The notes beneath the pieces were generated by a model that had not been told where the DNA came from, made no database searches, and saw only the letters and a list, made by a program, of their open reading frames with translations. A stretch of DNA of 40,397 nucleotides from a virus (lineage: Duplodnaviria; Heunggongvirae; Uroviricota; Caudoviricetes): the IMG/VR virus record IMGVR_UViG_2541047757_000012. The stretch is one strand, 5' to 3'. The position numbers and the translations under genes are program-made. Shown piece after piece: positions 24,455 to 39,984 of the stretch. How positions within the stretch are numbered: the stretch's first letter is position 1; the number at the start of each line of letters is the position of its first letter.

Positions 24455-24610
24455 TTACTCCTCAGGTTCGTAAGCTGTGAAGACAGCGACCTCCGTCTGG
24501 CCGGTTCGGATTCGTACCTCGCAGAGGTCTTTCCTCGTTACCAGTGCCGTCACTATGACGGTTAAACAGATGACGATCAGGGCGACTAACATCGCCTTTT
24601 GCTGCTTCAT
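24455..24610 (-). CDS. hok: Hok/Gef-family type I toxin
   Basis: 51 aa MKQQKAMLVALIVICLTVIVTALVTRKDLCEVRIRTGQTEVAVFTAYEPEE, near-identical to HokD/RelF as I recall it; SD AAGGAGAAG before the ATG at 24610. Confidence 0.8.
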   Translation of the reverse strand: MKQQKAMLVALIVICLTVIVTALVTRKDLCEVRIRTGQTEVAVFTAYEPEE

Positions 24611-24760
24611 AGCCTGCTTCTCCTTGCCTTTCGGCACGTAAGAGGCTAACCTAGATTTGCCGTTCATAGATTGAGCCTCAGATTAATGTTAAGCGTCTTG
24701 CCGGACGCGTAATGTTAACTGGGGCTTTTCTCTGTCTGCCTTACAGTGGCATGCCTGAGG
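24611..24760. promoter_or_regulatory. hok leader region, expected site of Sok-like antisense RNA and mok overlap
   Basis: Inverted repeat TCTGTCTGCC...GGCAGACAG at 24730-24770; in hok/sok loci the antisense RNA is encoded opposite the leader. Exact boundaries not determinable by eye. Confidence 0.35.
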
Positions 24761-24948
24761 CAGACAGCCTCAAGCACCCGCAGCAATCTTACCGACACCG
24801 ATAAGAAAACGCTATTTTTTATTGCCAGCACCTTCTATCCAGGCTAATTTATCTGCGTCAGAACGGCGCAATGCGCTCGCCTGAGATACGTTTACTTGCC
24901 ATGGTAACAACAGGTAACGGCAATTGTTGTTTCTGTTTTGTTTCCTTC

Positions 24949-31231: not shown

Positions 31232-31651
31232 ATGGAAAAAGAAAACGAAAAAATTGCCGCTAGTAGGCTCAATGACAAAATTGCAATGCGTCTTAAAGAG
31301 CGCAGGCAGAAGCTTGGTTTATCTCAAGGAAAACTTGCTGAAATCTGCGGATGGACGCAATCGCGTATAGGTAACTATGAGGCGGGCAGCAGAAATGTTG
31401 GAGTGCATGACGCTGTCGTATTGGGAAAGGCACTTGGCATATCTCCTCCTGAGCTCCTATTTGGAGAACAGGAATCTTCTGAATTGTGGTTAAATGAATC
31501 CCAACGAAAACTTCTTGAGTTGTTTAACCAGCTACCTGGCTCAGAACAACAACGAATGATTGAGCTATTTGAAGTCCGGCTAAAAGAAATCGATGAGTAT
31601 GTAGAAAAATATTTGAGAGGCAGGCTTAAAGATAATCCCCCACCGGAGTAA
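31232..31651 (+). CDS. Prophage repressor (XRE-family HTH, no obvious S24 peptidase domain)
   Basis: 139 aa with HTH LGLSQGKLAEICGWTQSRIGNYE; divergent to the cro-like gene; terminator follows. Confidence 0.65.
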   Translation: MEKENEKIAASRLNDKIAMRLKERRQKLGLSQGKLAEICGWTQSRIGNYEAGSRNVGVHDAVVLGKALGISPPELLFGEQESSELWLNESQRKLLELFNQLPGSEQQRMIELFEVRLKEIDEYVEKYLRGRLKDNPPPE

Positions 31652-31681
31652 TGATCTTGCTATCACAGTAATATGCCAATC

Positions 31682-31706
31682 AGCCCGCTATCAGCGGGCT
31701 TTTTTG
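31682..31706 (+). terminator. Intrinsic terminator after the repressor gene
   Basis: Stem AGCCCGC/GCGGGCT with 5-nt loop followed by TTTTT. Confidence 0.55.
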
Positions 31707-31734
31707 TACCATCATCATATGACACTCACCACAA

Positions 31735-31776: not shown

Positions 31777-31950
31777 AAGCATATCCAAACAACGCCCCAC
31801 CAGAGAACGGCTGGACAATACCTCGAGTTATCCAGCCACTGAACAGGGCTAAGTAGCCAGCCTGAGGCATACGAACATGACGGCAGTTGTTGATTGATAC
31901 AAAGCGCAGTAGATAAAACGTTCCGCCACCCGGCGTTAAGGGGAAAAAAG

Positions 31951-32169
31951 ATGGTTGGTGAAGATCTGGTTGTTATTAACGGTCAATTGTGCAGCAAAGA
32001 TGTGGCAGCCATGCTTATTAGCAAGGTTCTTCCAACTGTGCTGGAGGTCATTGCAGAAAAAGTAAAGGCTGGTCGTCCAGACAAGGAAGTTGAAGAGGCG
32101 GCAAAAACAGTTGTTCATGCCGCTACAGAAGCAATTATTTTGAAGAGCCTAGTTTCGCCCAAGCCTTAA
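31951..32169 (+). CDS. Hypothetical small protein, first gene of the early-left operon
   Basis: ATG at 31951 preceded by AAGGGGAAAAAAG; 72 aa. Confidence 0.45.
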   Translation: MVGEDLVVINGQLCSKDVAAMLISKVLPTVLEVIAEKVKAGRPDKEVEEAAKTVVHAATEAIILKSLVSPKP

Positions 32170-32329
32170 GTGAATCGGCGCTTTTTTTAGCATCACGTTC
32201 ATTGAGTAGTGACAAAAACTCATTCTCAGCATTCTCGATTTCCGAGAAAAATTCTTGATGAGTTGTTTCTCGCTGCGATCTGATGCTGAAAGCTAAAGCA
32301 AGTAGCCAGGCTTTGTCTTTATTATCCAT
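32135..32329 (-). CDS. Hypothetical small protein (convergent)
   Basis: 64-aa ORF with ATG at 32329; overlaps the 3' end of the plus-strand gene; no strong SD. Confidence 0.25.
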   Translation of the reverse strand: MDNKDKAWLLALAFSIRSQRETTHQEFFSEIENAENEFLSLLNERDAKKSADSLKAWAKLGSSK

Positions 32330-32724
32330 CTGAATACCTTATTACTGGTTGTGTGAGAACTCCAGTATACCACCGAGCCTGAAGTGGTAAAAAGACAGGC
32401 GCACAACACGAAGGCGCATTTCCGGTATTCATAAAGAGTCGGTCTTGTCTGTTAAATTTAAATGGTGGGAGTGCGCCTCCGGTTGTAAATAACGACATTG
32501 CTATGTGTAGTCTTTGGCGGCATCAGTTCTACTCCGTGGCTGCCCTGCCGCCCCTTTTTAAAGTGAATTTTGTGATGCGGTGAATGCGGCTAAGCGCACG
32601 CGGCACAGTTAAAAGCATCAGTGTTATGGGTGGATTATCCGGCGTTAATTGTTAACTGGTTAACGTCACCTGGAGGCACCAGGCACCGCATCGACAAAAT
32701 TCATTTGTAAAAATGGAGATAATT

Positions 32725-32946
32725 ATGATTGCTCATCACTTCGGAACTGATGAAATACCACGTCAGTGTGTGACCCCTGGCGATTATGTTCTTCATGAAG
32801 GTCGGACATATATCGCCTCGGCAAACAATATTAAAAAGCGAAAACTTTATATTCGTAGCCTGACTACAAAAACATGCATTTCTGACTGCATGATTAGAGT
32901 CTTCCTCGGTCGTGATGGTTTACCTGTAAAGGCGGAGTCATGGTAA
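32725..32946 (+). CDS. Hypothetical protein
   Basis: ORF with GGAG upstream of ATG at 32725 (track start 32713). Confidence 0.4.
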
Positions 32947-37857: not shown

Positions 37858-38052
37858 ATGCGGTATGAAAAAGTCAAACCATGCCCTTTTTGTGGTTGTC
37901 CATCAGTAACGGTGAAAGCCATTTCAGGATATTACCGCGCGAAGTGTAACGGATGCGAATCCCGAACCGGCTATGGTGGAAGTGAAAAAGAAGCACTCGA
38001 ACGATGGAATAAACGAACCACTGGAAATAATAATGGAGGTGTTCATGTATAA
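37858..38052 (+). CDS. ralR: Restriction alleviation protein Lar / RalR toxin
   Basis: 64 aa MRYEKVKPCPFCGCPSVTVKAISGYYRAKCNGCESRTGYGGSEKEALERWNKRTTGNNNGGVHV, closely matching Rac Lar/RalR as I recall it; SD GAGAG before the ATG at 37858. Confidence 0.8.
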   Translation: MRYEKVKPCPFCGCPSVTVKAISGYYRAKCNGCESRTGYGGSEKEALERWNKRTTGNNNGGVHV

Positions 38053-38233
38053 AATTACCGCCACTATTGAAAAGGAAGGTGGCACTCCTACTAACTGGAC
38101 AAGGTACTCAAAAACAAAGTTAACCAAATCGGAATGCGAAAAAATGCTCTCGGGGAAAAAAGAAGCAGGCGTTTCCAGAGAGCAGAAAGTAAAGCTGATA
38201 AATTTTAATTGCGAGAAACTTCTGCCCTCGTGA
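38045..38233 (+). CDS. Hypothetical small protein
   Basis: ATG at 38045 preceded by GGAGG; overlaps the lar stop by 8 nt; 62 aa. Confidence 0.4.
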   Translation: MYKITATIEKEGGTPTNWTRYSKTKLTKSECEKMLSGKKEAGVSREQKVKLINFNCEKLLPS

Positions 38234-38333: not shown

Positions 38334-38621
38334 ATGGCAATGAATCTTGTGACACTCAAAACGTGGGGAAAACTCAGATATCCGGATAACCCACCATCAA
38401 TATCAACGCTGAGACGATGGGCAAGGAATGGAAACATTTATCCTGCACCTGAACTACACGGGAGGAGTTACAGGGTGGTTCCGGAGGCTTTCTATATCAA
38501 CCCAAATAAGGTTGATACCGATATAACACACCATCAGCCTAATGGGCGACAAGGGAGAGACAGTCCGTTACTGGAGAAGTTAAAACATGCAGCGGAAAAA
38601 ATACGATCCCAATTTGCCTAG
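38334..38621 (+). CDS. xis: Excisionase, lambda Xis-like
   Basis: N-terminal ...VTLKTWGKLRYPDNPPSISTLRRWARNGNIYPAPELHGRSYRVV... parallels lambda Xis; 3' end overlaps int. Second ATG at 38340 has better SD spacing. Confidence 0.7.
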   Translation: MAMNLVTLKTWGKLRYPDNPPSISTLRRWARNGNIYPAPELHGRSYRVVPEAFYINPNKVDTDITHHQPNGRQGRDSPLLEKLKHAAEKIRSQFA

Positions 38622-39663
38622 GAACTTAACATATCGAAGGAGGGACAAAGCATATTACTGGCGCAACCCTCTGACGAAAGAAGAATTTACACTAGGTAAA
38701 ATTTCAAGAAGAGATGCAATCGCGCAGGCAATTGAAGCAAATCATTATATATACAAAAACTACTCTCCTGCTGCCTTAATTGAAAAACTTAAAGGGTTCG
38801 ACTCATTTACTATGGCAGACTGGATTGAACGTTACAAAACGATTCTTATAAGGAGAAAAGTGTCCAGAAATACTTATAAAATTCGGGTAAATCAACTGGA
38901 GACAATAAAAGAAAAATTGGGAGAGATTTTACTGACAGAAATAACCACTCGCCATATTGCCGAGTTTCTTGATTTGTGGATTGAAGGAGGGAAAAACACA
39001 ATGGCAGGATCAATGCGTTCTGTGTTGTCTGATATGTTTCGTGAGGCCATTGTTGAAGGACGTATATCTCAAAATCCAGTAACGCCAACAAGAGCACCGA
39101 AAATAGTAGTTACAAGAGAACGACTGAAACTAAAGACATACAACTGCATCAGGGAGGCAGCAGATCAACTTCCGGCATGGTTCCCATTAGCTATGGATTT
39201 AGCCCTTGTAACAGGACAACGTCGCGAAGACATAACGAATATGCGGTTTAGTGATATTTATGATGATCGTCTCCACATCAGGCAAATTAAGACAGGAATG
39301 ATGATTGCTATCCCCCTGTCACTCAGCCTTCCTGTCGCTGGTCTACGGCTTGGTACAGTAGTTGAACAGTGCCGCCTGGTAAGCCGGGGAGATTATCTAA
39401 TCAGTGCCGGGATTAGAAAAAACAGCCCTGACGGCAGCATTCACCCGGATGGCCTGACAAAAAAATTTGTCGCAGCCAGAAAATTAACAGGTATCCAGTT
39501 CAGTGAAAACCCACCAACTTTTCACGAGATCAGAAGCCTGGCTGGACGATTGTACAAAGAAACATGTGGAGAAGAATTTGCTCAGCGTCTACTTGGCCAC
39601 ACATCGGAGAAGACAACAAAAATGTATCTTGATGAGAGAGAAAAAACGTACTTACTGCTCTGA
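38587..39663 (+). CDS. int: Integrase, lambda-family tyrosine recombinase
   Basis: 358 aa; C-terminal catalytic region ...[11 protein letters not shown]...[18 protein letters not shown] with conserved Tyr; overlaps xis; adjacent to the att region. Confidence 0.9.
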
Positions 39664-39760: not shown

Positions 39761-39794
39761 AGACGCTTGCAACTGATTGATTTTAAATACAATT

Positions 39795-39897
39795 AAAAAA
39801 AGACCGAATACGATTCCTGTATTCGGTCCAGGGAAATGGCTCTTGGGAGAGAGCCGTGCGCTAAAAGTTGGCATTAATGCAGGCTTAGTTGCCTTGC
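39795..39897 (-). ncRNA. sdsR: sRNA SdsR (RyeB)-like host gene
   Basis: Minus-strand sequence GCAAGGCAACTAAGCCTGCATTAATGCC...GACCGAATACAGGAATCGTATTCGGTC + T7 matches my recollection of SdsR; sigma-S-like -10 CTATTCT upstream (about 39905-39911); terminal hairpin 39802-39828. Confidence 0.55.
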
Positions 39898-39984
39898 CCT
39901 TTAAGAATAGATGACGACGCCAGGTTTTCCAGTTTGCGTGCAAAATGGTCAATAAAAAGCGTGGTGGTCATCAGCTGAAATGTT

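Follow-up and report, generated by a model that had tools for sequence, protein, structure and literature searches.

The gap upstream of kil

We examined the gap at positions 32330-32712 of a 40,397-nt stretch of viral DNA (Caudoviricetes; IMG/VR record IMGVR_UViG_2541047757_000012), the whole of which is called the window here. On one side the gap is bounded by a divergent open reading frame (ORF) of 64 residues (32135-32329, minus strand) and on the other by kil, with which the early-left operon begins. The ORFs inside it are all short: one of 58 residues on the minus strand, and two of 26 and 29 residues on the plus strand. A sequence-only reading had called the gap ORF-free, which is true in the useful sense that the sole match among these ORFs is that of the 29-residue ORF to phrog_24763; RefSeq annotates no gene in the gap of an identical prophage (locus L001; L numbers denote fetched loci). 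Judged by homology, the window is a Rac-like prophage and the gap is the counterpart of the kilS-kilR intergenic region of K-12 Rac, where the MG1655 annotation places the noncoding RNA kilS (b4833, 98 nt) between sieB and kilR. The "empty" gap holds a small RNA (sRNA) gene of the DicF/KilS family with its own promoter and terminator, and then a folded leader before kil; there is no new kind of element in the region. The features of the sRNA gene, and kil itself, are as follows.

32450-32458, plus strand: extended -10 TGTTAAATT (TGn type) of the putative sRNA/kil promoter, read from the sequence
32465-32559, plus strand: predicted sRNA of 95 nt, from alignments to K-12 KilS and DicF and from its fold
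32497-32515, plus strand: single-stranded stretch AUUGCUAUGUGUAGUCUUU of the sRNA, from its fold
32502-32553, plus strand: match to the Rfam DicF model (RF00039), 60.9 bits, E 4e-11, full-length model 1-52
32516-32552, plus strand: DicF-type terminator hairpin of 7 + 4 bp with an 11-nt loop containing ACUCCG, from the Rfam DicF structure
32555-32559, plus strand: U-tract of five U (TTTTT)
32725-32946, plus strand: kil, which encodes the FtsZ/septation inhibitor Kil (phrog_294, E 8e-36; RefSeq annotation of the identical prophage)

Matches to the gap are common in E. coli: by megablast, 4624 of 5426 complete genomes (~85%) had one or more to the 383-bp region, and in 1774 no less than 80% of it was covered. 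A stretch without annotation that most of these genomes carry in some form is thereby resolved into named parts, an sRNA gene and a covarying leader before a toxic division inhibitor. The sequence-only reading had offered an antitermination site, a terminator or a small RNA as possible contents; the latter two turned out to be one object, whereas a lambda-type nut site found no support (no boxA and no N-like gene). What it had missed was the DicF/KilS homology, the sRNA's own promoter and a covarying leader that reaches the ribosome-binding site (RBS) of kil.

A mosaic of KilS and DicF

An Rfam scan, which had been suggested as a check, returned DicF above its gathering score (48 bits) and STnc100 (RF02076) at 44.3 bits, below its own (47 bits), the E-value of the DicF match being computed for the whole window. 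With the same DicF model K-12 DicF scored 76.7 bits, and K-12 KilS 39.1 bits (E 1e-5), below the gathering score; on this evidence K-12 KilS is a diverged relative of DicF. The window aligns to the K-12 kilS-kilR intergenic region from 32401 through to kil. Counted from the KilS start, near-identity begins at about -65 and reaches +48, with a single substitution in the first ~48 nt of the RNA. The predicted transcription start, 32465, aligns with the annotated 5' end of K-12 kilS (b4833, 1418502), and the KilS 3' end corresponds to the U-tract ending at 32559. Past +48, the window departs from KilS and tracks DicF through the hairpin: that of K-12 KilS is GGCGGCAUCAGUUUUUUUCUUGAAGUUCGGCUGAUGUCCGCC and that of the window GGCGGCAUCAGUUCUACUCCGUGGCUGCCCUGCCGCC, which is the DicF hairpin with four substitutions (33 of 37 positions identical).

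Neither parent accounts for the whole RNA. In K-12-type genomes megablast covers only nt 1-64 of the sRNA query, so that full-length identity to KilS is lacking. The DicF 5' single-stranded seed UUUCUGGUGACGUUU is likewise absent, the window having UAUGUGUAGUCUUU in its place, with six of the 14 unpaired model positions identical. Upstream of the hairpin, the KilS-type sequence with its own promoter showed no similarity to the upstream region in Qin, which fits DicF being processed from a ydfABC-dicF-dicB transcript; such biogenesis through RNase E along with RNase III is not supported here, where a KilS-type promoter lies upstream. Since a KilS-type promoter and 5' half are joined to a DicF-type terminator hairpin, and since the DicF seed and biogenesis and the full-length KilS identity all fail, the most fitting description of the sRNA is that of a mosaic within the DicF/KilS family.

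The GC-rich stem that the sequence-only reading had pointed out, GGCGGCA at 32516-32522 and TGCCGCC at 32546-32552 followed by CCTTTTTA (32553-32560), is the base of this terminator hairpin. Its spacing of 23 nt is right, but these nucleotides do not form a loop of that size, as the Rfam DicF structure adds a 4-bp inner helix (CAGU/GCUG) and leaves 11 nt unpaired. The hairpin has no non-canonical pairs in the covariance-model alignment, a terminator scan also calls a terminator here, and the stem covaries, with GGCGG/CCGCC in the window and GGUGG/CCACC in loci L140 and L197. Hairpin and U-tract are, as predicted from the sequence, an intrinsic terminator closing a small RNA of the DicF/KilS family. 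The 5' part of the RNA folds into KilS-type hairpins, among them a small one, GUUGU-AAAUA-ACGAC, maintained in relatives through a U·G to U-A change. The extended -10 lies 6 nt before the predicted start. On both sides of the promoter, at about -53 and +8, stand the halves of a perfect 7-bp inverted repeat (AGGCGCA/TGCGCCT, 32412-32418 and 32472-32478); its arms extend to 12 nt at 83% complementarity, it is kept in K-12 Rac, and it may act as a site for a regulator or, in read-in transcripts, as an RNA stem.

KilS has been described as predicted from RNA interaction by ligation and sequencing (RIL-seq), verified by northern blotting, accumulating in stationary phase and lost in an hfq mutant, with an independent transcription start and RIL-seq chimeras with yncL; DicF goes unmentioned in that paper (Bar et al., 2021, PMC8175672). 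For DicF, the 3' region represses ftsZ by pairing with its RBS, as shown with compensatory mutants, and the 5' end pairs with and represses xylR and pykA (PMC5069750). The 3' end of DicF is made either by the terminator, giving a 53-nt RNA, or by RNase III, giving one of 72 nt (PMC5069750).

Target duplexes were computed with 24-26-nt sliding windows, as RNAduplex on whole molecules gave unrealistic giant-loop structures, and used the K-12 ftsZ sequence, the host's ftsZ lying outside the window. Nucleotides 63-86 of the sRNA are complementary to positions -37 to -3 of ftsZ, including the Shine-Dalgarno sequence, at -25.2 kcal/mol, compared with -22.9 kcal/mol for K-12 DicF. In the same search K-12 KilS showed no pairing with the ftsZ Shine-Dalgarno sequence. 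Because its loop and 3' arm carry the anti-Shine-Dalgarno sequence, the window sRNA is predicted, by analogy with DicF, to repress ftsZ translation. Targeting of the xylR/pykA type is not expected, given that just six of the 14 DicF seed positions are shared, and the 5' stretch should recognise targets other than those of DicF. Within the window, no site complementary to the seed was found besides the sRNA gene itself.

The terminator lies between a promoter and a toxic gene, and the hairpin might therefore serve in cis alone, as an attenuator that silences kil and recET, with the short RNA a by-product without function in trans. Terminator hairpins do vary widely between alleles, as expected if termination is all that matters, and yncL is the sole KilS target named from RIL-seq in the text consulted (PMC8175672). 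Yet in that same source KilS accumulates in an Hfq-dependent manner and forms RIL-seq chimeras; any loop would suit a terminator, whereas the DicF-type loop nucleotides that pair with ftsZ are kept here and in many phages; and regulation in trans is proven for DicF, which has this hairpin (PMC5069750). We therefore regard a purely cis-acting terminator as unlikely, and favour an sRNA that acts in trans as well.

Nucleotides 33-52 of the sRNA (32497-32516) are identical at 19 of 20 positions to nt 60-79 (AUUGCUGUGUGUAGUCUUUG) of RprA, an sRNA of the core genome, in a block, AUUGCU[A/G]UGUGUAGUCUUUG, that in each of the two RNAs stands directly 5' of the terminator; in K-12 KilS the match to this block is 16 of 16 nt. 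The KilS/RprA block can pair with the 3' end of yncL, the RIL-seq partner of KilS, and the window allele has a G-to-A change within it. The stretch UGUGUAGUC(U)UUGG also occurs in sRNA-like prophage units of loci L011, L127, L140, L197 and L206. Outside the shared block the two RNAs are unrelated, the RprA model giving 31.5 bits against a gathering score of 70. We rejected a phage mimic of RprA, as the block is not the RprA seed and E for the match is 0.075 when the search space has the size of a genome; the characterised seed of RprA is a stem-loop about nt 31 from its 5' end, with the block downstream of it (PMC5861431). Sliding-window duplexes with the rpoS leader revealed no RprA-like pairing of the window sRNA.

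Allele counts were obtained by megablast among the same 5426 genomes. The KilS-type 5' half is present in ~1500 of them and full-length K-12 KilS in 1455, while the complete combination seen in the window occurs in 86, including O157:H7, O55:H7 and O111 strains; FDAARGOS_1289 and 2013C-4974 match at 100%, and this exact allele is unannotated in RefSeq. In O157:H7 strain 2571 (L248, 2501-3898) the same sRNA allele, 96.8% identical, lies in a Rac-like prophage, with a gene for a Rha-family regulator inserted between the sRNA/leader region and kilR. Other joinings were read across loci fetched with a leader motif: the DicF seed with a short hairpin GGCGGAAACGGAUAUCCGCC in an E. albertii locus (L009; a one-base variant in viral contig L189), the DicF seed with a KilS-like hairpin in L125, a CAUGUGUAGUCUUUGG seed and DicF loop preceded by a Qin-type upstream region in L140 and L197, and the CAUGUGUAGUCUUUGG seed after an STnc100-like domain in L011, L127, L129 and L198. 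On these comparisons, the combinations amount to the mosaicism typical of lambdoid phages, at sub-gene scale. With the window allele, module swapping among prophage sRNAs has a concrete natural example, and this minority allele should combine ftsZ repression with a different seed, a prediction that bears on how prophages tune host cell division.

A covarying leader of the STnc100 class

The transcript from 32465 to 32730 is more stable than expected (minimum free energy z = -3.3), with a long closing helix that runs from the U-tract region to just before kil and encloses several hairpins. In a permissive Rfam scan, 32543-32732 matched STnc100 (E 6.5e-08, model 1-206), and with this model the related leaders of Qin and K-12 Rac scored 34.4 and 28.0 bits, respectively. 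As in STnc100, a closing helix surrounds hairpins with the conserved boxes GGUGAAU and CACCNGGAGGCACCNGGCAC. The leader comprises the following elements.

32552-32717, plus strand: structured kil leader of ~165 nt, STnc100-class fold, from covariation
32561-32582 with 32684-32706: P1, the closing helix
32552-32560 with 32707-32716: extension of P1 in the window sequence, giving a closing helix of 22-30 bp overall
32586-32601: P2
32641-32667: P4
32669-32683: P5 (CCUGG-AGGCA-CCAGG)
32715-32718, plus strand: kil Shine-Dalgarno GGAG, whose two G's are predicted to pair with CC 32552-32553 in extended P1

A MAFFT alignment of the GGUGAAUGCGGCU subfamily, with 30 non-redundant members, served to score four helices (P1, P2, P4 and P5). 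Over their 42 pairs, 87.3% of cells were paired, compared with 34-42% when partners were slid by 1-3 columns, and 24 pairs change on both sides. The covariation score was 0.303, compared with ~0.07 for slid partners; the observed values were reached by none of 500 shuffles. RNAalifold independently recovered P1, P2 and P5. Structure prediction and a covariation search, both proposed in the sequence-only reading, hence bear out a conserved fold. That reading had also listed repeated ATGCGG units, and two copies indeed exist (32575-32580 and 32584-32589), but they do not form a repeating element: the 5' arm of P1 contains the first, which differs between homologues, and the second is the invariant P2 stem.

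The 29-residue ORF (32621-32710, plus strand) runs across P4 and P5, and its match to phrog_24763, a family of unknown function, is strong (E 5e-13). The right half of the gap would accordingly encode a small protein if this match were taken at face value, the more so as the frame through the conserved core (SPGGTRH) is open in 30 of 30 homologues and some phage records annotate a hypothetical protein there. Against a coding function, the homologues have no conserved start codon or Shine-Dalgarno sequence, their open frames vary from 15 to 65 codons with unrelated N-terminal parts, their substitutions are compensatory base-pair changes that would be radical in a protein, their indels are not multiples of three, and RefSeq calls no gene. 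We give a protein-coding right half only a minimal chance; as neither the start nor the N-terminal part is conserved in the 30 homologues, phrog_24763 probably consists of ORF calls over a conserved RNA.

Downstream of the U-tract, the leaders of kil in the window, kilR in Rac and dicB in Qin are ~90% identical, and the genes that follow this leader subfamily vary: dicB, kil, a 119-residue protein, YdaE-like proteins and acidic proteins of 93-96 residues. Among species-representative genomes, the CACCNGGAGGCACCNGGCAC motif of hairpin P5 was found at more than 120 loci; almost all of these belong to Enterobacterales, and the few elsewhere are GC-rich chance matches. It was also found in more than 120 viral contigs, often in 2-3 copies per locus. 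Genomes and prophages of Enterobacterales commonly contain STnc100-class domains (GGUGAAUCCCCCU...CACCGGGAGGCACCCGGCAC), with copies spaced 250-650 bp apart (examples among L007-L246 are L012, L030, L046, L056, L080 and L137). Of 207 unique class members, ~109 have a terminator within 150 nt, beyond a short stretch of variable sequence, and are sRNA-like, and ~55 are followed by a Shine-Dalgarno sequence and an ORF and are leader-like, which indicates that the STnc100 class is used in two ways: these Rfam-class elements serve as mRNA leaders as well as sRNA domains.

The position of the gap is equivalent to that of nutL, and P5, a 5-bp stem with a pentaloop, superficially resembles boxB in geometry, so that a nut site of lambda type (boxA plus boxB), or a different site at which a protein brings about antitermination of the early-left operon, deserves consideration. 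Nevertheless, 32330-32712 has no match to a CGCUCUUUA-like boxA at up to one mismatch, no Rfam antitermination family was matched, and there is no N-like gene, in line with the sequence-only reading's remark that no such protein was evident upstream, the first gene past the leader being kil. Moreover, P5 sits in a multi-helix domain that also occurs in sRNA-like units, ~109 times directly before terminators, and in late regions. A nut-type function is thus extremely unlikely. A related idea is that the leader resembles the put RNA of HK022, acting in cis on RNA polymerase against downstream termination and replacing N. Prophages without N must still read through terminators, and shortly after the early promoter comes the leader, an RNA that is conserved and covaries. 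The leader has, however, no sequence or model similarity to any Rfam antitermination family, and lies after the promoter-proximal terminator rather than before it; about half of the class members directly precede an intrinsic terminator, by which the 3' end of an sRNA is evidently set; and the description of K-12 kilR as silenced via NusG/Rho function (PMC5793797) argues against built-in antitermination. We consider a put-like role very unlikely.

Proposed control of kil and comparison with known systems

We consider it quite probable that the early-left (kil-ydaE-recE-recT) operon is controlled from the gap, which is made up of sRNA, terminator and a leader over kil. In the mechanism that we propose, transcripts would start at ~32465 from the extended -10 promoter and most would stop at the intrinsic terminator (32516-32559), releasing an Hfq-type sRNA of ~95 nt that may repress ftsZ through the terminator loop and 3' arm, while its different 5' stretch may recognise other mRNAs. 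Transcripts that read through would fold the ~165-nt leader, whose closing helix is predicted to hide part of the kil Shine-Dalgarno sequence. The folded leader would keep toxic kil untranslated, and untranslated kil RNA would be exposed to Rho, which fits the dependence on NusG/Rho reported for kilR silencing. The duplex is probably cut or opened: cleavage by RNase III in P1, predicted after about 32573, could split the sRNA from the mRNA and free the kil RBS.

Extended P1 is predicted in the window, K-12 Rac and Qin, through pairing of the terminator's C-rich flank and U-tract with an A-run and the first G's of the Shine-Dalgarno sequence, and base-pair probabilities show the Shine-Dalgarno G's to be paired in the ensemble for kil, K-12 kilR and dicB. 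With K-12 coordinates mapped onto the published ends (PMC5069750), the 3' end that RNase III gives DicF in its 72-nt form lies 19 nt past that of the 53-nt RNA, inside the 5' arm of P1, which supports the formation of P1 in vivo as an RNase III substrate. The prophage repressor (a 139-residue helix-turn-helix [HTH] protein, 31232-31651) is unrelated to K-12 racR (L002 6766-7242; BLASTP E = 2), yet the kil promoter/sRNA region is near-identical, indicating that the immunity module and the kil control region are exchanged independently; the promoter's conservation alongside unrelated repressors favours control by termination over control at an operator. Operator control by the immunity repressor was rejected on these grounds and because no repressor-type repeated operators were found, the single 7-bp inverted repeat around the promoter being the only candidate repeat.

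Several points weigh against this reading. The promoter has no good -35, and a consensus scan requiring both hexamers made no call. Folded alone, the sRNA does not surpass its shuffles (z = -0.86), which is common among short sRNAs. For the duplex with ftsZ, 2 of 40 shuffles equalled the energy of the window sRNA and 5 of 40 that of DicF, a modest margin. The STnc100 score falls just short of the gathering score, and several other members of the leader class show no Shine-Dalgarno occlusion, from which we infer that occlusion is a feature of the kil/dicB version and not the general function of the class. The Rho and RNase III steps draw on the K-12 Rac and Qin literature and would apply here by analogy.

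A broader proposal is possible, though we judge it more doubtful than not: DicF and KilS would be one modular prophage sRNA family in which promoter/5' domain, seed and loop are shuffled by recombination, each unit being coupled through an STnc100-class leader to a toxic small gene (kil, dicB or others); the window allele would be a natural seed/loop swap, and the leader a gate that generally controls translation of prophage toxins and opens when RNase III acts or the duplex unfolds. If so, the ftsZ-silencing loop of DicF has come to be driven by the KilS promoter, which in K-12 works in stationary phase and is apparently free of the immunity repressor, and lysogens with the window allele would dampen FtsZ synthesis without prophage induction.

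The surroundings agree with the placement in an early-left operon given by the sequence-only reading. Downstream of kil, on the same strand, follow a YdaE-family zinc protein, an ORF in the position of RacC, RecE and RecT; beyond RecT come RalA and then the chromosomal ryeA/ryeB locus. Upstream of the gap are the HTH repressor, a divergent Cro/YdaS-like HTH protein and YdaT. Two further features lie at the left side of the gap.

32329-32135, minus strand: divergent 64-residue ORF (phrog_22868)
32364-32391, minus strand: sigma-70-like putative promoter of this ORF (TTTACC, 16-nt spacer, TG, TATACT), from a promoter scan

The block TACCACCGAGCCTGAAGTGG of the divergent promoter recurs at the equivalent relative place in seven fetched loci. 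A 26-nt direct repeat, 77% identical (CCACC..G..AAGNGG.AAAAAGA; 31926-31951 and 32370-32395) and possibly due to chance, has one copy just before the start of a 72-residue ORF and the other within this block. The repressor gene is directly followed by a strong intrinsic terminator (AGCCCGCTATCAGCGGGCT with a T-run; 31682-31700, plus strand), which separates the repressor transcript from the kil promoter region; a weak Rfam Trp_leader match (31621-31707) is merely the hairpin of this terminator. Elsewhere in the window, Rfam matches above gathering scores were obtained for a sok antitoxin RNA (hok/sok-type module; 24605-24779, minus strand), RalA, the antitoxin of RalR (38051-38229, minus strand), and the chromosomal SraC/RyeA-SdsR/RyeB pair (39791-39935, both strands), the last of which places the prophage beside the ryeA/ryeB locus, with an integrase-like ORF at 38587-39663.

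Set against known systems, the locus resembles the lambda pL leader in outline, as both have a long duplex in the early-left leader beside the RBS of the first gene; in lambda, nutL and an RNase III-sensitive hairpin reportedly precede N. There is no sequence homology between the two, however, and the window has neither boxA/boxB nor N protein, and its duplex is preceded by a terminator-defined sRNA. In StxS of Stx phages, early termination at tR' likewise yields an Hfq sRNA from a promoter-proximal terminator and leaves the downstream genes off (PMC7547250), but there the promoter is the late pR', the sequence is different and read-through depends on Q, whereas no antiterminator is known for the window locus. 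The STnc100/PasD prophage RNAs (RF02076; Zhu, Shabalina and Storz, 2026 preprint) share the multi-helix architecture and conserved boxes, with P2 being CCCCCU..GGGG in STnc100 and GCGGCUAAGCGCACGC in the window leader; there, the fold is the 5' domain of a terminated sRNA, and here it is an mRNA leader before kil. Described STnc100/PasD copies lie in late regions near Q, LpxR or stx, and a PasD locus was rejected for this reason. In the literature searched, no paper contains the exact sRNA sequences, and the DicF-KilS relationship, this recombinant allele and an STnc100-class leader of division-inhibitor genes appear undescribed.

The closest relatives are the two RNAs that this locus links and that the literature searched treats separately. 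K-12 Rac KilS occupies the same locus, the kil 5' untranslated region, with the same promoter region, leader and downstream operon, but has a terminator hairpin of its own and no ftsZ anti-Shine-Dalgarno loop. Qin DicF differs in its 5' targeting stretch and in having dicB downstream instead of kil, but shares with the window sRNA the ACUCCG loop that pairs with the ftsZ RBS, the ~90% identical downstream leader and a position directly upstream of a cell-division inhibitor gene.

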